A program made the position numbers and the translations under genes. Shown piece by piece: positions 1 to 18,768 of a stretch of 64,000 nucleotides of DNA. The stretch is from assembly GCF_053078305.1 (NCBI RefSeq), contig NZ_CP166879.1; one strand, written 5' to 3'. The first letter of the stretch is position 1. Each line of letters starts with the position of its first letter. The notes beneath the pieces are model-generated. The model saw nothing but the letters and a program-made list of their open reading frames with translations, did no database searches and had not been told where the DNA came from.

Positions 1-2325
1 CTGATTGGCGGTGTGCCCGCGATCTTTCAGCCATGCGTTCAGGCAGACGCGGGTTGCCCGCAGTGCTTCACCCTCAGGCCAGCCGGTGATACCCAGACGG
101 GTTGCCAGTTCACCCGCCATCGCCACCAGTGCAAAGCGATTCACAGCCCGGCCCACCTGGTTGCCTGCATCTTTCGGAGTCAGGGCGGCAGCATATTCCT
201 TCATCAGCGATTTTGCCTGTGCCGTTAGTCCGTTAAGATCAGCGGTCAGTGCTTTCAGCCACTCCCGGAACGGCGAACCGTAGTAGCAGGACGTGGCCCA
301 TTCAAGATGCTCTGCCAGAGCCTTGCCGCTGTCGAAGCCGTGCAGCTCCTCAAAAACGCCAAACTTCCCGGAATCGCTGGGGATCTGGATCATCCTGACT
401 TCCATCCCGGCAAAAGTACGCTCACCGGCCTTTGCCGCATGTTCGGTCAGAGATAACTCGCCAGTTGAAAAGAACAACAGGCGCCACTGCTTACGGGTAC
501 GCAGCTCACCGTCCGTACCGGCACGACCCTTGCCCTGACCGTTTGCCAGCATGTAGGCGATACTGCCTGCCTCGCGTCCGTCAACTTCCCGGATCTCATC
601 AAGCATCATGGCGGCATCGTTGCGGCGGCTGGCGCATCCCTCCAGCGCGTTGCCGGTGGCCCGCCATGTCTGCCAGTAGTCAGGCCCGCCGCAGACGGAG
701 GTTGCCGCTTTCATGGTGGTGGTCTTACCGTCTGTCGATTCCCCTTTGAGGTGGTAGCCGCCGCCGTCCATACCAACCAGCCGTAACAGTGGTGCAGCAA
801 AGGCCAGGCTGACAGCAAATGCCACGCGGGAGTTGCCGGTACAGTAGCGGGATACGTTCTCCCGCCATTCCTCTGTTGTACCCGACACGCGGAAATCACG
901 CCCCTGCACGGAAGTGGTCTGGAGAATGACACCCTCTGCACCTTCACCGCTGACCTCATCCTGCAGGACGTAAACCTGACCATGCCAGCCAGTACGGCTG
1001 ACGCAGGTCACGCGGCGTTCCGGTTTACACAGTGAGATATATTCCATCAGGCGTGCGCGTGCCTCACCGGTGGTGCTGATATAAGACAGCCCGTTAACCA
1101 GCAGTACCCGGCGCAGTTCCTCACCACTGCCGCTCAGCATTTCCATCGGCATCGCCCAGCGGCGACGCTCACCCCATGTATCTTCCCATTCCAGCAGTCG
1201 TCCGAAGTTACCGCCATCGGCATCGCAGGTGATTGCCGTAACGCGCAGCGGGCTGCATATTTTGACGTTCTGGATCTCCGTCTCACCGTTGCGCTGTACC
1301 TGCTTTTCATACCAGAGATATTCCTGGGTAAGACGGAACCCGTGCGGCAGTTGCGTGCGGCCTTCCCCGCACAGTACCAGACCGTTGCGAAAGACTTCAC
1401 GGGCACGGGTAATACCGTGCTCCCGATGAAAGTCATTCCAGTCAGCCTTAATCTCTCCTGGTGGCAGCGTCATCCAGCCGCCAACAGCTTTTGCCGCCCG
1501 TTCAGCAAAGGCTCTGCCGGGATTCTCCCCCCCGTCCTGAAAATCGTTATCACCGGCGATGATAATTTTTACCTCAGGCCAGCGTGCCCGCAGCGACTGC
1601 GCCACATTGGGCAGGTTGCCCGCAGATATGGCAGCCACTACGCATCCGGCAGTGAGCTGGCTTACCGTCAGCGCCGTAGCGTAACCTTCGGTAATCACCA
1701 CCTGTACCGGTGGTTCAGACGGTAACGGGCTGAGCGACACAAACGCGCCTTTCATCGTGCTGCCGGGCAGTATGCTTTTTTCACCCGTCGGGGCGATAAG
1801 CTGTGCACCGGTCACGGCTCCGGTGTTGGTCGTGAGTGGTAACAGCAGAGAACCGGCAGGAAAATCCTTACCGCTGATATGCTGCACGCTTCCGGTCAGA
1901 GAGGCTGGGTATCCGGCGAACCCTTTTCCTGTCAGATAGGCGCTTTCTCCCGTGTGGCTCTCTTTCATCAGCGCCGCCACGGTAAGACCCATGTCGCGTT
2001 TAGGGGCTTTTTGTCTGGCAGGCTTAACAGGCAGTTCCTGCACATCCGGCACATTAAGCATCTGCGCCACCTCCTGCGCAGCCTTTCTGACGCTGTAACC
2101 GGTTACGAGCTTAACCAGATCCAGACCGTCACCATTGCCACACTGGCTGCAGATCCACGTCCCGCGCCCGTCAAGGTCATCAAGGCGAAAACGATCCTTG
2201 CCCCCACATTTCGGGCAGGGACCGTGCCTGCCGTTTTCAGGTACATCAATACGCAGCATCTGCAGAATAACGGGCCATTTCCCCCGCGCGGCGGCTGAAA
2301 TCTGCGTAACCGTCTGTATTGTCAT
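1..2325 (-). CDS. P4 alpha-like DNA primase-helicase (zinc-ribbon, Toprim and P-loop NTPase regions); 3' end runs off the window
   Basis: Hand translation of the minus strand from ATG at 2325 stays open to position 1 (about 775 codons). N-terminus has CPKCGG...CSQCG zinc-ribbon spacing, an internal IIAGDNDF Toprim-like acidic motif and a GESTDGKTT P-loop. Absent from the ORF track because it leaves the window. Start overlaps the upstream stop as ATGA. Confidence 0.8.
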   Translation of the reverse strand, partial: MTIQTVTQISAAARGKWPVILQMLRIDVPENGRHGPCPKCGGKDRFRLDDLDGRGTWICSQCGNGDGLDLVKLVTGYSVRKAAQEVAQMLNVPDVQELPVKPARQKAPKRDMGLTVAALMKESHTGESAYLTGKGFAGYPASLTGSVQHISGKDFPAGSLLLPLTTNTGAVTGAQLIAPTGEKSILPGSTMKGAFVSLSPLPSEPPVQVVITEGYATALTVSQLTAGCVVAAISAGNLPNVAQSLRARWPEVKIIIAGDNDFQDGGENPGRAFAERAAKAVGGWMTLPPGEIKADWNDFHREHGITRAREVFRNGLVLCGEGRTQLPHGFRLTQEYLWYEKQVQRNGETEIQNVKICSPLRVTAITCDADGGNFGRLLEWEDTWGERRRWAMPMEMLSGSGEELRRVLLVNGLSYISTTGEARARLMEYISLCKPERRVTCVSRTGWHGQVYVLQDEVSGEGAEGVILQTTSVQGRDFRVSGTTEEWRENVSRYCTGNSRVAFAVSLAFAAPLLRLVGMDGGGYHLKGESTDGKTTTMKAATSVCGGPDYWQTWRATGNALEGCASRRNDAAMMLDEIREVDGREAGSIAYMLANGQGKGRAGTDGELRTRKQWRLLFFSTGELSLTEHAAKAGERTFAGMEVRMIQIPSDSGKFGVFEELHGFDSGKALAEHLEWATSCYYGSPFREWLKALTADLNGLTAQAKSLMKEYAAALTPKDAGNQVGRAVNRFALVAMAGELATRLGITGWPEGEALRATRVCLNAWLKDRGHTANQ

Positions 2326-2705
2326 ACTTCCCCCTGATACAACGTCACACCGGTACTGCAGAAGTCATCAAAGGCCGCCGGAAGCGTGCGGTACATCTCC
2401 GCCATCACTTCACAGCCGCGCGCGGTCAGTACCGGCGGCGCGGTCAGCAGTGACGGCTCCAGCATGTCAGTCAGCAGTGCCAGCGCGGCAGCGGCGCCCT
2501 GTGCTTCGCCGTACTCGTTAATCAGTGCGCACTCGATATGCAGCGCAATGGCCATTTCAATACGCTCCACCGTCAGGCTGTGCGGACCATACTGATCACT
2601 GCCAGTTTCGTTCAGCATTTTCTGCCGCCATGCTGAAGCAATAGCCCGTCGGTAAAGCGCGGTGGTCATTTCTGCCGGGAAAATGGAAACCTGCGGCTGG
2701 TTCAT
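2322..2705 (-). CDS. hypothetical protein (127 aa), island operon member
   Basis: ORF with GGAGGTG Shine-Dalgarno immediately upstream of ATG at 2705; stop overlaps the primase ATG (ATGA coupling). Confidence 0.6.
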   Translation of the reverse strand: MNQPQVSIFPAEMTTALYRRAIASAWRQKMLNETGSDQYGPHSLTVERIEMAIALHIECALINEYGEAQGAAAALALLTDMLEPSLLTAPPVLTARGCEVMAEMYRTLPAAFDDFCSTGVTLYQGEV

Positions 2706-2986
2706 CTGGCACCTCCTTCAATCAGTGCGCAGCTGTGTGCAATATCCGTCAAATCTGCCCGCAGGTACTCCATCAGCGCGGCGACACCAGGCGCACAGCC
2801 TGCGTCCAGTGCTCCGGCCTGAGACGGGTATTCAGAAAAGAGAAGCTGGAGCATGTCGCAGGCATTTCTTGCGCGGATCAGCTTTCCGAAACCGTCCTCT
2901 GACAACCCATAGGCAAAAGCACCGGTATTGTGTTTTTCAGGCAAAGTGTGGCCCTGAGCACCGTTGTGCCCGTTTGAAATATTCAT
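2702..2986 (-). CDS. hypothetical protein (94 aa), island operon member
   Basis: ORF with GGAG Shine-Dalgarno upstream of ATG at 2986; stop overlaps the next gene start (2702-2705). Confidence 0.55.
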   Translation of the reverse strand: MNISNGHNGAQGHTLPEKHNTGAFAYGLSEDGFGKLIRARNACDMLQLLFSEYPSQAGALDAGCAPGVAALMEYLRADLTDIAHSCALIEGGAR

Positions 2987-3017
2987 CGTGAATTACTCCG
3001 TTTTCAGCGGTATTTTG

Positions 3018-3377
3018 TCAGAGAAACTTTGAATAGTGACCGTCGTCAGGCTCAGCAGAACGCCGTATGGTACGCTCCCGCCAGCGGATAAATAGCACAG
3101 ACGGATGCAGTGTCAGCGGGCCGGAACCACTACTGCCTGCAGGAGCTGGTGCAGGCTTAAAGAGCGGTACATCAAACAGGCGCGTATACCGCTGTTCAAA
3201 CCATGCCAGAGGGCAGGAAGAAAGCTGGTTGTCGCTGTCATGACGTATCAGCACTTCACAGCTGAATTCAGGATTAACCAGCGCCACAGAGGGCGAGGCT
3301 TCTATTAATCGGATAATCGTGACCGTCCAGCCACGTTCATGCCGCCAGCGTTCGCCGGGGTGCGGATAATTACGCAT
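3018..3377 (-). CDS. hypothetical protein (about 119 aa), island operon member
   Basis: Track ORF 3018..3407 begins on a non-ATG codon; an in-frame ATG at 3377 is preceded by GGAGGTGA, so the shorter start is preferred. Confidence 0.5.
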   Translation of the reverse strand: MRNYPHPGERWRHERGWTVTIIRLIEASPSVALVNPEFSCEVLIRHDSDNQLSSCPLAWFEQRYTRLFDVPLFKPAPAPAGSSGSGPLTLHPSVLFIRWRERTIRRSAEPDDGHYSKFL

Positions 3378-3546
3378 GTTCACCTCCGCAGGGAATGCGC
3401 CCGGCAAAGCTCAGTACACAGTCCGGGGCAAGTCTGCGCCGCGCTGACCGCTCATTATCTGCGGTGAGCCTTAACATCACAGGACGGGCATTGCGTTGAC
3501 TGCGGTTGATCGCCGCAAATAACCAGGTACACTTCTGTTTAGCCAT
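3370..3546 (-). CDS. small hypothetical protein (58 aa), first gene of the operon leading to the primase
   Basis: ATG at 3546 preceded by GAGG at good spacing; it is the C-terminal part of the track's 244-aa ORF 3370..4104, whose upstream portion looks non-coding. Confidence 0.35.
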   Translation of the reverse strand: MAKQKCTWLFAAINRSQRNARPVMLRLTADNERSARRRLAPDCVLSFAGRIPCGGEHA

Positions 3547-3621
3547 CTTCGTTACCTCATATAGCGGATTGGTCAGAAGCCCGGTTAGTGTTGCTGCACT
3601 GTCGGGCTTCGCACTCACAAG

Positions 3622-3713
3622 GTGAATCGCACCTTTAATTTTAAAGCTACCCTTAAGTGAATCGCACTTCAAGCTTTTTATTATCATTTTTTTTGCGTAT
3701 ACTGAATCGCACC
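3622..3713. promoter_or_regulatory. three direct repeats of TGAATCGCAC(C/T) in a divergent promoter region (candidate operator sites)
   Basis: Copies read directly at 3622-3633, 3657-3668 and 3702-3713, between the minus-strand operon start (3546) and the plus-strand small gene (3734). Confidence 0.5.
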
Positions 3714-3733
3714 TAACGCGAGGAGATCCAGTA

Positions 3734-3919
3734 ATGGCAACGAGTTCAACTAACAACAAGTCGCAGCAACTTAATGCTCGTTTCCCACATGATGTAGTTG
3801 CAGAATTAGAAAGCAACCTTGAAGATGGAGAAACGAAAGCGCAATTCATTGTTACTGCTGTAAAAGGCGAGATTAAACGCCGACAGCGCAGGAAAAATAA
3901 GCCAGAGCAAGGAAGTTGA
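3734..3919 (+). CDS. small basic protein (61 aa), possible ribbon-helix-helix-type DNA-binding regulator
   Basis: ATG at 3734 preceded by AGGAG; lysine/arginine-rich C-terminus; rho-independent terminator downstream. DNA-binding role is inferred. Confidence 0.55.
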   Translation: MATSSTNNKSQQLNARFPHDVVAELESNLEDGETKAQFIVTAVKGEIKRRQRRKNKPEQGS

Positions 3920-3982
3920 ATAGAGAAGCCAACAGACGTTCTCTCTGGTCCCATGTTAATTTCAGTAAGCGACAATATTTTT

Positions 3983-4016
3983 AAGCCCACAAATTCATTA
4001 TGTCGGGCTTTTTTAT
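3983..4016 (+). terminator. rho-independent terminator downstream of the 61-aa gene
   Basis: GC stem (aagccc...gggctt) followed by a T-run at 4009-4015. Confidence 0.5.
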
Positions 4017-4030
4017 TAGTGATTTTCATA

Positions 4031-4246
4031 TCACTCACCACGAGAGGCATATATTTGCTCTTGAATCCAGTGATCAACTTCGCTTTCAACGAATGAAATT
4101 GCACGAGTTCCTATTTTCACCGGACGGGGAAATGTATTGTTTGCAAGCTGTTTGTAAAGCCATGCCTTGCTACGCTGAACGCGTCTTAATACCTCTTTTG
4201 CTGAGATAAGAGTCTGATTATCTGAAAAGCTGTTTGCATATTCCAT
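4031..4246 (-). CDS. alpA: AlpA-family phage transcriptional regulator / excisionase-like protein (71 aa)
   Basis: Size and sequence character match AlpA-type regulators of P4-like islands; ATG at 4246 preceded by GGAG. Track ORF starts earlier at 4291. Confidence 0.7.
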   Translation of the reverse strand: MEYANSFSDNQTLISAKEVLRRVQRSKAWLYKQLANNTFPRPVKIGTRAISFVESEVDHWIQEQIYASRGE

Positions 4247-4530
4247 CTTGTTACTCCGTGTTCTACTTAAGTTCACGGTGACTTTAAACACTGGGAAAAA
4301 GTGATTCTAGTGATAATGGAATCTATTAAGACAAACATTGATTCTATTGAAAAACAATAATCTCCACTGAAAAAAAGAAGTAATATTCATATGAAAGAAC
4401 ACGGAAAGAAGGAAATGCACAAAACAATAAAATTAATAAAATTCATATAGATAGGATGGAAAATCAAAAAATCATACGTCAAAAGGTATTATTACATTTT
4501 AACGATTCATATTACCTAGGAATTAGCACA

Positions 4531-4560
4531 GTATTACACCGTATTACATCGTATTACCCC
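4531..4560. repeat. three perfect tandem 10-bp repeats GTATTACNNC
   Basis: gtattacacc / gtattacatc / gtattacccc read directly in the AT-rich intergenic region between the 212-aa gene and alpA. Confidence 0.6.
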
Positions 4561-4622
4561 CTATAGCCCCTTAGAGCCTCTTGTGGCCCTTCTATTGAGA
4601 GATAGCCAGAAAATTAATAAAT

Positions 4623-5261
4623 TCACTCTCCGTATTTTATAATGTCTTTCCCCAGCTTTATTTTCTTATAAAACGTAGCTTTTTTAATCCCTTTCATTAG
4701 AATCTCATTCTCATTACAAAAAGAAACAATATCATTATATATAACACTATTATCGCTATAACTTACCTTTCCATGTCTCTTAAGCAATTCAATTAGTAAA
4801 TAAATTAATTTACAACTATAATTATCCTCATCATCTTTTCTGTACTGCCCTCTACCATTACTCCTTAATTTTTTACCAACTTCACATAATTCACTTCCTC
4901 CTAACGTCATTAGAATATCGCTCCAATCTTTATTTTTTACCTGTTGTCGTAATGCGTTCTCAATTCTCTCCTTAATCTCCACAGGTACAATACCTTCCCT
5001 CTGAAAGATATAAGCAGCAGTTAATAATAAGTTCGCCTCCACTTTTTGCGTGGCGGATACGTTTTTATATTCATTAATTAATTGTAGATTTCTGGTTATT
5101 GCCTTTCTTAATCTAATAACCTCTTTTAATTGAACCTCAGTCAATTCATCATTTTCGGTATCATAGTCAAAACCATTCATAGCAAGCGCCACTTCGTGTG
5201 GCGTTATGTAAGTTAACCTATTAAAATAAAACAAATTATTATCAAATTGAGTATTGTTCAT
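4623..5261 (-). CDS. hypothetical protein (212 aa), AT-rich orphan cargo gene immediately downstream of the integrase
   Basis: ATG at 5261 preceded by GGAGAG; clean ORF; visibly AT-rich and rich in K/N/I/E codons compared with flanking core genes; no motif I can recognise. Confidence 0.7.
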   Translation of the reverse strand: MNNTQFDNNLFYFNRLTYITPHEVALAMNGFDYDTENDELTEVQLKEVIRLRKAITRNLQLINEYKNVSATQKVEANLLLTAAYIFQREGIVPVEIKERIENALRQQVKNKDWSDILMTLGGSELCEVGKKLRSNGRGQYRKDDEDNYSCKLIYLLIELLKRHGKVSYSDNSVIYNDIVSFCNENEILMKGIKKATFYKKIKLGKDIIKYGE

Positions 5262-5290
5262 TTAAATCTCTCCGCAGCCCCCAATGGTAA

Positions 5291-6574
5291 TTATTTTCCA
5301 TGCATACGCGCAAAATCATATGGTGTGATAGATCCATTCTTATTAGCATCAATATAATCAGCCCACCATTGCAACATTAATCTTCTTTCTTCAAGATATT
5401 CGGAAGTATGCATATATGAACCTTTCACGTTTTTTCGTTCAACGTGGCTTAACTGTCTTTCAATGGCATCATCATTCCATAGTTTCGACTCACTTAGCGC
5501 ACCACGCGCCATAGTTCTAAACCCATGACCACATACTTCAGTTTTCGTATCATATCCCATTACACGTAAGGCGTTATTTACTGTATTTTCACTCATTACT
5601 TTTTTAGGATCATGATCGCTGGGAAATATAACCTCACCTTTACCACTCAAGGCATGTAAACGTTTAAAAATATCAAATGCTTGTTTGCTAAGCGGAACAA
5701 TATGTTCAGTTTTCATCTTCATCCCACGCTCAGAGTGTTTTACGCCGGGAATAGGCTTACGAATTCCGGGTATTGTCCACTCGCTTCGTTCAAAGTTAAC
5801 CTCACTCCAGCGAGCAAAACGCATCTCACTTGAACGTATAAATGTGAGTAGCGTTAATTCAACGGCAAGCCGTGTCATTAGTCGCCCTTTATAGCGTGAT
5901 AGTCTTTCAAGAAGCTCAGGAATTCTTTTTGGGGGTAGTGCTGGGTGGTGGGTTGCTTTAACGCTTAAAAGCGCTCCAGCCATATCGCATGCAGGATTTG
6001 ATTCAAGCAGGTCATTCTGCACACCAAAACGCATAATTGCGGTTACGCGCTGCATCAGTCGCTGCGCGACATCATGTTTACCTGCCGTATCGACAGCTTT
6101 GATTGGATTGAGAAGCTGGCTGGTTCTCAACGTTCTGGCATCGATTTGACCTATCGAGGGGAAAATATACTGCTCAAGTGTCAGCAGAACACGACGGCTA
6201 TGATCTTCGCTCCAAGTAAGGTTACTTGCGTGCCATTGCCTTGCGATAGTTTCAAATAAATATGCCCCCTCAATTTCAGCTTGTGCCCCCTTTTGCTCAG
6301 CTTTGGGGTCAATACCCTGAGACAACAATTTCTTTGCTGCATCGCGCTTACCCCGCGCTTCAGCCAAAGTGACAGTCGGGTATACACCAAAAGCGAGTCG
6401 ATCTTCCTTTTTGTCAGAGGGGCGGCGATATTTCATGCGCCAGTACTTAGAACCTTTAGGGGAGACCTCAAGATACAAGCCGCCTCCATCAGCCATTTTA
6501 TAAGCTTTCTCTTTCGGCTTTGCGGTCTCTATCTGGCGAGCGTTGAGTTTCATTTTGGGGGCACAAATCCTCAT
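5291..6574 (-). CDS. P4-type tyrosine integrase (site-specific recombinase)
   Basis: 427-aa ORF adjacent to the tRNA 3' end; sequence character matches P4-family integrases. True start may be the internal Met at 6553. Confidence 0.85.
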   Translation of the reverse strand: MRICAPKMKLNARQIETAKPKEKAYKMADGGGLYLEVSPKGSKYWRMKYRRPSDKKEDRLAFGVYPTVTLAEARGKRDAAKKLLSQGIDPKAEQKGAQAEIEGAYLFETIARQWHASNLTWSEDHSRRVLLTLEQYIFPSIGQIDARTLRTSQLLNPIKAVDTAGKHDVAQRLMQRVTAIMRFGVQNDLLESNPACDMAGALLSVKATHHPALPPKRIPELLERLSRYKGRLMTRLAVELTLLTFIRSSEMRFARWSEVNFERSEWTIPGIRKPIPGVKHSERGMKMKTEHIVPLSKQAFDIFKRLHALSGKGEVIFPSDHDPKKVMSENTVNNALRVMGYDTKTEVCGHGFRTMARGALSESKLWNDDAIERQLSHVERKNVKGSYMHTSEYLEERRLMLQWWADYIDANKNGSITPYDFARMHGK

Positions 6575-6717
6575 CGAATTGACATGCCCCCGATTATGCC
6601 CCCAAAAGAGGGTAGACTACAAGAGACCAACAAAGACCATTAGATACCATACTTTACTTGTTTTTTAAGGATTTTTTTGTATTTAGAGACTTCAGGAAAC
6701 GTCAAAAGAAGTGTTAA

Positions 6718-6802
6718 TGGTGCCGAAGGCCGGACTCGAACCGGCACGTATTTCTACGGTTGATTTTGAATCAACTGCGTCTACCGATTTCGCCACTTCG
6801 GC
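6718..6802 (-). tRNA. leuX: tRNA-Leu (anticodon CAA)
   Basis: Reverse complement reads GCCGAAGTGGCGAAATCGGTAGACGCAGTTGATTCAAAATCAACCGTAGAAATACGTGCCGGTTCGAGTCCGGCCTTCGGCACCA, with the CCA end facing the integrase. Confidence 0.95.
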
Positions 6803-15890: not shown

Positions 15891-16990
15891 CACACCGCTC
15901 CTTTACGCGAAAAACTGGCGCGCAGGCGGCGGACCGGCACGGTGTCCCAAAGGTTGAGAACAATCGCCAAAGCCAGATAAATCAGGTTAACGGTCCACAT
16001 CCACAGCGTCGGGTCCAGCTTACCTTTACCGCCGTTCGATTTCAGGGAGGTCTGGATCAGGAAGAAAAGTAGATACAGCAGCATGGCTGGCAGCATCGAC
16101 AGTACGCGTCCCTGACGTGGGTTAACCACGCTCAGCGGTACGACCATAAGTGCCATCATAAACACGGTGAATACCAACGTGATACGCCAGTTCAGTTCTG
16201 CGCGAGCACGATCGGTGTCAGTGTTCCACAATGTGCGCATGTCCATCTGGTCGGTATCGTTCGGGTCGAGCGCCACCGCCTGGTGACCAATGATCGCCTG
16301 ATAATCCTGGAAATCCGTAATGCGGAAATCACGTAACAGTGCAGTGCCTTCGAAGCGCGTTCCCTGGTTGAGAGTGACGACCTGGGAGCCGTCGCGCAGC
16401 TGGGTTAAATGTCCGGAATCGGCCACCACCACAGAAGGACGTGCATTACCTTTTGGTCGAATTTGCGCGAGGAACACATCTTTGAAATCGCTGCCGTCAA
16501 CGCTTTCGATGAACAGCACCGAACTGCCATTAGTCGCTTGCTGGAATTGCCCTTGCGCCAGCGCCGCCATGCCAGGGTTCGCTTTCGCTTCTGCTAACAC
16601 TTCATCCTGATGACGCGATGACCACGGTCCCGCCCACATCACGTTAACCGCCGCGACGATTGCCGTGAATACCGCAAGGATCATTGCCGCTTTCACCAGA
16701 ACCGCTTTGCTCAGGCCGCAGGCATGCATTACCGTAATTTCACTTTCGGTATACAGTTTGCCCAGCGTCATCAGCAGCCCGAGGAACAGGCTTAATGGCA
16801 GGATAAGCTGCGCCATTTCCGGCACGCCCAACCCGAGAAGGGAGAGCACCAGATTCGCCGGAATATCGCCGTCAACCGCTGCGCCGAGGATCCTCACTAA
16901 CTTTTGACAGAAGAAGATCAAAAGCAAGATGAAGAGTATCGCCAGCTGGCTTTTGAGCGTCTCCCGCACCAGATATCTTATGATTATCAC
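15890..16990 (-). CDS. lptF: LPS export ABC transporter permease
   Basis: 366 aa, divergent from pepA. Confidence 0.95.
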   Translation of the reverse strand: MIIIRYLVRETLKSQLAILFILLLIFFCQKLVRILGAAVDGDIPANLVLSLLGLGVPEMAQLILPLSLFLGLLMTLGKLYTESEITVMHACGLSKAVLVKAAMILAVFTAIVAAVNVMWAGPWSSRHQDEVLAEAKANPGMAALAQGQFQQATNGSSVLFIESVDGSDFKDVFLAQIRPKGNARPSVVVADSGHLTQLRDGSQVVTLNQGTRFEGTALLRDFRITDFQDYQAIIGHQAVALDPNDTDQMDMRTLWNTDTDRARAELNWRITLVFTVFMMALMVVPLSVVNPRQGRVLSMLPAMLLYLLFFLIQTSLKSNGGKGKLDPTLWMWTVNLIYLALAIVLNLWDTVPVRRLRASFSRKGAV

Positions 16991-17253
16991 TTTAAATACG
17001 CCCGTAAAAACTCGTCTTTTGCAGGATTTTAGCTTGTTTCATGGCTTAAACGTCATTTATTCTCTTGAGTCGTCGAAATCGTCGCTAAGATAATTATACT
17101 CAACGGATTCACCTCTCAGATTTTGTTCTGACGTGCCAATGCCGTAATAACGTTAAGATTAACACGAAGTCATCGCAACAGCGGACATGAGTTACGAAAG
17201 CTTGCAATTCTATCTGTAGCCACCGCCGTTGTCTTTAAGATTCAGGAGCGTAG

Positions 17254-18768
<1,515 letters not shown>

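Follow-up and report, generated by a model that had tools for sequence, protein, structure and literature searches.

A candidate regulator of alpA encoded behind the integrase of a P4-like satellite at leuX

A putative alpA regulator in a satellite control circuit

We analyzed a 64,000-nucleotide stretch of DNA (the window; contig NZ_CP166879.1) whose positions 1-6802 belong to a P4-like satellite integrated at the tRNA gene leuX. Directly behind the integrase gene (int) of this satellite, and ahead of alpA, lies a 212-codon open reading frame (ORF), ORF212, which we call X. We propose, with a probability of roughly 40%, that X is a regulator of alpA, presumably a DNA-binding one, and belongs to the satellite's own control circuit. 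A role in this circuit is suggested because X has no homology to defense proteins, is coupled to int wherever it occurs, and is accompanied by an array of repeated boxes in the alpA promoter. X would be made constitutively with Int in the quiescent satellite and would bind the four-box array through its basic C-terminal half; bound X would then set the activity of the alpA promoter, which switches the satellite from its quiescent state to excision and replication upon induction by a helper. Repression that is lifted by a helper-phage cue would be the most likely mode, the alternative being a conditional activator.

For alpA of Gram-negative satellites, neither a repressor nor a factor that senses the helper is known (PMC6092414), and how these elements sense their helper and switch on AlpA has been an open question since 2018. 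The satellite described here, which is present in ~4% of complete E. coli genomes, offers a test case that consists of a 212-aa protein, a 70-bp box array, and one promoter. The proposed link between X and alpA regulation is new; the slot that X occupies and the family to which it belongs were both known before, as unknowns.

The gene itself comprises two features:

4623..5261, minus strand: ORF212 (X), 212 aa, ATG start; all-alpha protein, member of PHROG 30524
5268..5273, minus strand: ribosome-binding site GGAGAG of ORF212, 6 nt before the ATG (from the sequence)

X is a conserved gene coupled to the integrase

The initial annotation had described a 212-codon ORF with its own GGAGAG ribosome-binding site, 29 bp past the integrase stop, and this is borne out, on the minus strand (29 nt from stop to ATG on the coding strand). 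Its impression of an AT-rich, K/N/I/E-heavy gene that differs from int and the core genes was also accurate: GC content is 0.311 in ORF212, 0.444 in int, 0.49 in the ahr-idn core genes, and 0.59 in the alpha primase part, and L, K, N, I, and E are the most frequent amino acids of the protein. AT-richness extends beyond the gene, from the 3' end of int across the spacer as far as alpA (~4000-5600). At this composition, 212 codons free of stops would arise with a probability of ~5e-10. ORF212 matches PHROG 30524 over its full length (E 3.3e-108, residues 1-212 on positions 1-220 of the 220-position profile), and its dN/dS of 0.16 against a 91%-identical orthologue (0.04 for int; both values from equal-length sequence pairs only) indicates purifying selection. 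These three observations show that ORF212 is not a chance ORF.

ORF212 is found in 204 of 5426 complete E. coli genomes and is annotated as a hypothetical protein in each. The insertion sequence IS1 splits the ORF212 match in E. coli NZ_CP091022 and NZ_CP058355, and IS1 lies somewhere within the 6.7-kb int-alpha block in NZ_CM168000 and NZ_AP021890. These insertions indicate that ORF212 is dispensable for the host and that the AT-rich block is a target of IS1.

The N-terminal half of the protein is acidic and more variable, whereas the C-terminal half is basic and more conserved, bearing a GRGxYRKxDE motif and a helix-turn-helix (HTH)-like GIxKSTFYxK motif; the overall pI is 8.3. No enzymatic, membrane, or NTPase module was found; the initial annotation had recognized no catalytic motif. 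The same annotation had proposed X as a candidate single-gene defense, and here nothing that we found offers positive support: ORF212 matched zero PADLOC families at E up to 1, no family in NCBIfam or Pfam (searched with the single sequence and with a 23-sequence alignment; HTH_17 and Phage_AlpA included), and no PDB entry by sequence or by profile, and it carries no effector-like domain. The label "defense cargo" is not earned.

The X family is small, satellite-specific, and already catalogued as unknown. A phmmer search of 1.84e9 cluster representatives returned 21 X matches and a profile search of 5.8e9 proteins returned 44. All matches are "hypothetical" proteins of ~210-240 aa without Pfam domains, and all are from Enterobacterales; Foldseek adds members of this same family from Xenorhabdus, Gilliamella, and elsewhere. 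X homologues from loci L002, L006, and L007 match the same PHROG profile. In the literature, we found no mention of PHROG 30524 or of relevant accessions.

Our set of X loci comprises nine loci from nine species, a phage-inducible chromosomal island (PICI)-like island beside yicC, a deposited "phage" that is a capsid-forming PICI satellite (cf-PICI), and a 12-kb circular "plasmid", together with 21 cf-PICI contigs and 4 IMG/VR contigs found via the box motif described below. In every locus examined, which apart from the cf-PICI and IMG/VR contigs means 13 loci from different genera, X sits directly 3' of an integrase gene and is read in the same direction. The two genes are 29-47 nt apart in the ORF212 clade and one cf-PICI; in the other loci, they overlap by 1-8 nt, mostly as ATGA, or are separated by 1-2 nt. 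Wherever the contig is long enough, alpA follows 275-640 bp after X. The int allele of the window (≥95% nucleotide identity) occurs in 204 complete E. coli genomes, the same number as have X, and always carries X. Several relatives have a hairpin right after X, which manual reading identifies in locus L015 as a clear hairpin-plus-T-run terminator. Because of these structures, the arrangement fits X as the second and last gene of an int operon, with alpA probably transcribed from a promoter of its own.

A box array in the predicted alpA promoter accompanies X

Between X and alpA lie the following features:

4303..4372, minus strand: four co-oriented boxes, consensus TTTCAATRGAWT, candidate X operator
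4360-4372, minus strand: box 1 (degenerate)
4340-4352, minus strand: box 2
4319-4331, minus strand: box 3
4303-4315, minus strand: box 4
4281..4309, minus strand: predicted alpA promoter; -35 TAGAAT (4304-4309) inside box 4, 17-nt spacer, -10 TAAAGT (4281-4286)
4247..4280, minus strand: alpA leader; hairpin CCGTG (4274-4278)/CACGG (4256-4260) abutting the Shine-Dalgarno (SD) sequence GGAG (4254-4257)
4031..4246, minus strand: alpA, AlpA-family regulator, excisionase-like; 72 aa from ATG 4246 (RefSeq)

The alpA promoter was assigned by manual reading of aligned promoters; a generic promoter scan did not report it. All X loci have four boxes directly upstream of alpA, at spacings of ~19-21, 21, and 16 bp, with box 4 lying over a weak -35 (TGGAAx or TAGAAT) that is followed, after 17-18 nt, by a TAxxxT -10. 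This layout is kept across X lineages that are ~30% identical and that pair with three integrase clades and three alpA clades. Since the remaining spacer is not conserved between X lineages, we argue that the boxes are under selection.

The cf-PICIs allow the boxes to be assigned to one of the neighboring genes. Within 160 bp upstream of alpA, at least two box matches are present in 21 of 21 cf-PICIs with X, compared with 0-1 in ~58 evaluable others, and AlpA is up to 99% identical in box-poor cf-PICIs that lack X. The boxes thus follow X rather than AlpA or Int, as the cf-PICI box pattern tracks the slot gene. For the same reason, a reading of the boxes as AlpA sites is disfavored: cf-PICIs whose AlpA is 96-99% identical but that carry another slot gene have no boxes. 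A weight matrix placed box clusters at this position only; none turned up by attL or attR, in elements whose slot gene differs (among them L004 and L005, which have the same icd-alpha backbone), in canonical P4-like elements, or in EcCICFT073; the matrix was built from the same sites, which makes this specificity check partly circular, but the cf-PICI loci are independent and agree with it. A reverse search of IMG/VR with the box pair gave mostly chance matches; satellites made up 4 of the 120 loci, and all four carry X.

For alpA itself, translation more likely begins at the ATG at 4246, since GGAG lies 8 nt upstream of it; an 86-aa ORF from GTG 4291 is probably too long and would overlap the predicted promoter. 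The alpA leaders of cf-PICIs have an analogous SD-sequestering hairpin, GCCTCCAC/GTGGAGGC, whose 8 bp are perfectly paired and include the SD sequence. Upstream of its predicted promoter, the window has a perfect 10-nt complement of the alpA SD region, TCCGTGTTCT (4396-4405, pairing with 4255-4264); judging from its position, it could mask the alpA SD sequence only on int-X read-through transcripts.

The int-alpA slot is an exchangeable cassette

The int-alpA slot is a genuine variable cassette. We compared 80 cf-PICI loci whose alpA is 80-100% identical to that of the vB_KppS-Ant reference and found at least six unrelated protein families in the slot: DUF6387, the PHROG 7144 family (which includes the slot proteins of L004 and L005), X, and three smaller families. 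Each of the three largest is found with integrases that are 97-100% identical to the reference. The left border is sharp: the window and L012 share 90-99% of nucleotides along int but 41-71% from the int stop onward; at the right border, homology among cf-PICIs returns only ~35 bp before the alpA ATG. This right junction places the alpA promoter region within the cassette.

X also moves independently of its neighbors. The integrases that precede X fall into three clades of ~25% mutual identity, among which the X lineages are reshuffled. Between the window and L012, identity is 97% for int, 65% for X, and 79% for alpA; between L007 and L015, the corresponding values are 87%, 35%, and 82%. Co-divergence of X and Int, as expected of a dedicated Int partner, is rejected by this reshuffling. 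In E. coli, other slot genes are likewise seen with the same icd-alpha backbone as that of the window. The slot can even be empty: EcCICFT073 (L223, E. coli CFT073, 15931-17714), the reference PICI for Gram-negative hosts and the one most thoroughly studied in E. coli, has a 365-bp int-alpA spacer and no TTTCAATRGA boxes.

The other slot proteins (DUF6387, PHROG 7144, PHROG 5215, and two families without a match; cf-PICI loci L153-L221) are uncharacterized, and we found no informative literature on DUF6387. Several start with a similar HTH-like N-terminal motif, such as IPFQYCNIERASRLLGCEISDL, and one ends in GGRP plus an HTH-like tail. A common origin of the slot proteins was considered and rejected, with hhalign giving a probability of 0.2% for X against PHROG 7144 (L004/L005/F2/F6); hints of kinship between X and slot proteins in pairwise BLASTP comparisons (E ~0.01) were dropped after this result.

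Relation to known satellite genes

Judged by its location, X is an integrase-contiguous gene as the term is used for the PICMIs (phage-inducible chromosomal minimalist islands) of Vibrio, where integrase-overlapping or integrase-contiguous genes (iolg/icg) of 13 unrelated families constitute a class defined by position (PMC10803314). X likewise lies after int on the same strand and upstream of alpA, often with an ATGA overlap (a 29-nt gap in the window), in a slot that holds multiple families and is sometimes empty. The comparison is one of position only; the hosts of X are Enterobacterales and its satellites are P4-like elements, PICIs, and cf-PICIs, and the long spacer and conserved box array of X cassettes are not described for PICMIs.

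In its proposed mechanism, X would resemble Stl (Rpr), the master repressor of Staphylococcus aureus pathogenicity islands (SaPIs) and other Gram-positive PICIs, which is int-adjacent, differs strongly from one satellite to another even where these are otherwise alike, and controls the promoter from which the induction genes are expressed (PMC6092414). X is also int-adjacent and hypervariable, and a repeated candidate operator, the four-box array found only with X, lies at the predicted promoter of the master activator. X is nevertheless not a member of the Stl family: the two share no homology, X is downstream of int and co-directional with it rather than divergent from the regulated operon, and in EcCICFT073 a functional PICI exists without any slot gene.

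A further comparison is with proteins such as P2 Cox, P4 Vis, and AlpA, which are encoded by small phages and satellites, bind direct repeats arranged in tandem, and link recombination to promoter control. Manual reading suggests that the N-terminal motif ITPHEVALAMNGF of X resembles the start of winged-helix domains. Whereas proteins of the Xis/Cox/Vis type are basic winged-helix proteins of less than ~100 aa whose sites lie in the att arms, X, at 212 aa, is roughly three times their size, has an acidic N-terminal half, matches neither HTH_17 nor Phage_AlpA, has no box clusters at the att sites, and adjoins a bona fide alpA.

The initial annotation had placed the gene in an accessory slot next to the integrase, in the setting of the P4 defense hotspot. 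An exchangeable slot with at least six families does exist between int and alpA, but it is not the known P4 hotspot; the background invoked fits the canonical int-cargo-psu order and not the present element. Defense cargo of that int-psu hotspot was reportedly the subject of Rousset et al. 2022. As at the hotspot, the integrase next to X is of the P4 type and sits at leuX, and conserved flanks enclose content that varies. [quoted passage not shown] X is separated from int by 29 nt or overlaps it, in contrast to the 145-170 bp with its own promoter at the hotspot, and X has no homology to any known or candidate defense protein.

Competing explanations for X

Several observations weigh against X as the regulator of alpA. 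X and the boxes are only 300-600 bp apart, and co-inheritance alone could yield their association. The boxes also resemble the consensus for integration host factor (IHF), WATCAANNNNTTR, and could be sites for a host factor; moreover, their position upstream of and over the predicted -35 would equally suit an activator. AlpA auto-activates its own promoter (PMC6092414; PMC11773190). The alpA gene of EcCICFT073 is helper-inducible (PMC6092414) although its slot is empty, so a slot protein is not generally needed for helper sensing. Finally, deletion of iolg in PICMI115 abolished excision and did not cause constitutive induction (PMC10803314), unlike the outcome expected of a simple repressor.

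An alternative, which we regard as rather unlikely, is that X is single-gene anti-phage or interference cargo, expressed constitutively from the int operon against competitor or helper phages, and that the slot is a second, undescribed defense hotspot. The slot indeed turns over as cargo would, with at least six families in cf-PICIs, 13 in PICMIs, and none in EcCICFT073; alleles of X occur in changing combinations with int and alpA and have diverged far more quickly than these; the composition of X is AT-rich and foreign-looking; and the IS1 insertions show that the host can do without it. PICIs have been reported with immune systems at their 5' and 3' ends (PMC11364771), and genes between int and the regulator have been termed accessory (PMC10085698). 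However, neither X nor any other cf-PICI slot family has a PADLOC match, X has no enzymatic, membrane, or NTPase module, and the recognizable defense system of the element lies elsewhere, at the delta-attR end. The consistent overlap with the int stop and a box array of its own in the alpA promoter are also unexpected of cargo.

We consider it unlikely that X is a recombination cofactor of the iolg/icg type that joins Int and AlpA in an excisive or integrative complex, a role that has been proposed for the integrase-overlapping gene of Vibrio PICMIs. The position of X in the slot and the genetics of PICMIs point in this direction, although the PICMI deletion of iolg was complemented only by int and iolg jointly, and a polar effect on int is possible (PMC10803314). 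Against such a cofactor, cf-PICI integrases that are 97-100% identical pair with X or with two unrelated families, and X lineages in turn pair with integrases ~25% identical to each other. Directionality factors are typically far smaller than 212 aa. No box clusters lie near attL or attR, and in EcCICFT073, where the slot is empty, induced replication was shown to depend on the element's own int and pri once AlpA is supplied (PMC6092414).

The weakest explanation, which we hold to be highly improbable, is that X binds centromere- or iteron-like 10-bp arrays and aids plasmid-like replication or segregation of the excised satellite: every X cassette does have a 275-640 bp spacer with phased 10-bp arrays, whose copy number shifts in 10-bp steps between near-identical elements and some of whose units resemble the P4 alpha iteron TGTTCACC, and one X-bearing element was deposited as a 12-kb circular "plasmid", but similar arrays follow int in EcCICFT073 without X, array sequences differ between elements with related X, and no partner NTPase is present.

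Regulation of alpA by X would have consequences beyond this satellite: the widespread practice of labeling whatever lies between int and the regulator "accessory" or "candidate defense" would need revising, and cassette exchange would explain shifts in helper range. A broader and distinctly improbable extension is that the int-alpA slot of P4-like elements, PICIs, cf-PICIs, and PICMIs is an exchangeable "sensor cassette" rather than a site for accessory cargo, in which a protein (X, DUF6387, PHROG 7144, or others) is combined with a matching alpA promoter and chooses the helper-phage cue to which AlpA responds. X-type proteins would then be functional counterparts of Gram-positive Stl, and cassette swaps would change helper specificity. 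If X instead protects against phage, the int-alpA slot would be a second defense hotspot common to three satellite families. Either outcome would give a function to a slot that now holds only proteins of unknown function.

The repeat arrays with 10-bp period occur at the following positions:

4500..4590, minus strand: direct repeats, 10-bp period; three copies of GTAATAC at 4531-4557 plus degenerate flanking copies
L002, 7120-7330: analogous array
L016 and L017, 8640-8800: analogous arrays
L223 (EcCICFT073), 17185-17260: analogous array

Exact arrays of this period follow X in every X locus, with repeat units that vary between elements. A role as X-specific sites is weakened by EcCICFT073, which has an AACAAC x6 array straight after int despite lacking X. 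Some array units (GTTCAY) resemble the alpha iteron of a canonical P4-like element (L008, 10270-10370), and among near-identical cf-PICIs the spacer grows from 560 to 640 bp in 10-bp steps.

Organization of the satellite at leuX

The remaining landmarks of the satellite in the window are:

6718..6802, minus strand: leuX, tRNA-Leu(CAA), by ARAGORN; its 3' end is the attL core
5291..6574, minus strand: P4-type tyrosine integrase with an arm-type DNA-binding N-terminus (RefSeq start 6553)
3734..3919, plus strand: ylcI/ynfO-family gene, the last gene of the int-X-alpA-ylcI block, which is exchanged as a whole relative to the icd-alpha backbone

The genes to the right of leuX are E. coli ahr and idnK/D/O/T. 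As the window cuts the element inside the alpha gene, the whole element was read from the 99.9%-identical island of E. coli 98197 (L001). The order there is leuX, int, X, alpA, ylcI on the opposite strand, an icd-like gene, two small ORFs, DUF5375, a TOPRIM/DUF927 alpha primase, a sid-like gene, psu, delta, and genes for an ATPase of 745 aa and a protein of 280 aa. Apart from ylcI, the core genes are all co-directional (window 1-6802 plus L001 18460-31261). In this near-identical island (NZ_CP173573), the satellite ends in an 18-bp repeat of the leuX 3' end, GTTCGAGTCCGGCCTTCG, 12.7 kb from the tRNA gene. Canonical P4-like elements at leuX have int, 145-170 bp, variable cargo, psu-delta-sid on the opposite strand, and then alpA(-epsilon-alpha); the order found here, int-X-alpA-...-alpha-sid-psu-delta-cargo-attR, is non-canonical.

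The PADLOC check proposed in the initial annotation led away from X: the 745-aa and 280-aa proteins at the delta-attR end of L001 correspond to the candidate system PDC-M38A/B, an AbiL-like ATPase and its partner. In relatives that share this backbone, Drt3a/b or other candidate cargo, for example a DUF4062 protein, occupies this end. This variable cargo site lies beyond the window (L001 27894-30978, L004 13007-16293, L003 11825-15595). In the DUF4062 relative, a phage-portal fragment, an IS3 remnant, and SIR2-family and ATP-binding genes follow, maybe outside the element.

The icd-alpha backbone of this type is present in at least 336 of 5426 complete E. coli genomes and meets the int block at a sharp mosaic junction (~3585-3607), with GC content 0.55-0.60 on the left (icd-alpha) and 0.30-0.45 on the right (ylcI-alpA-X-int). 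In ~135 further E. coli genomes, icd-alpha is 98% identical to that of the window but the int-slot-alpA-ylcI block is different, and these blocks are integrated at other sites, for example a tRNA-Arg gene. The divergent region between the icd-like operon and ylcI contains three TGAATCGCAC(C/T)T copies (3623-3634, 3658-3669, and 3703-3714; spacing 35 and 45 bp), which look like the operator set of another regulator.

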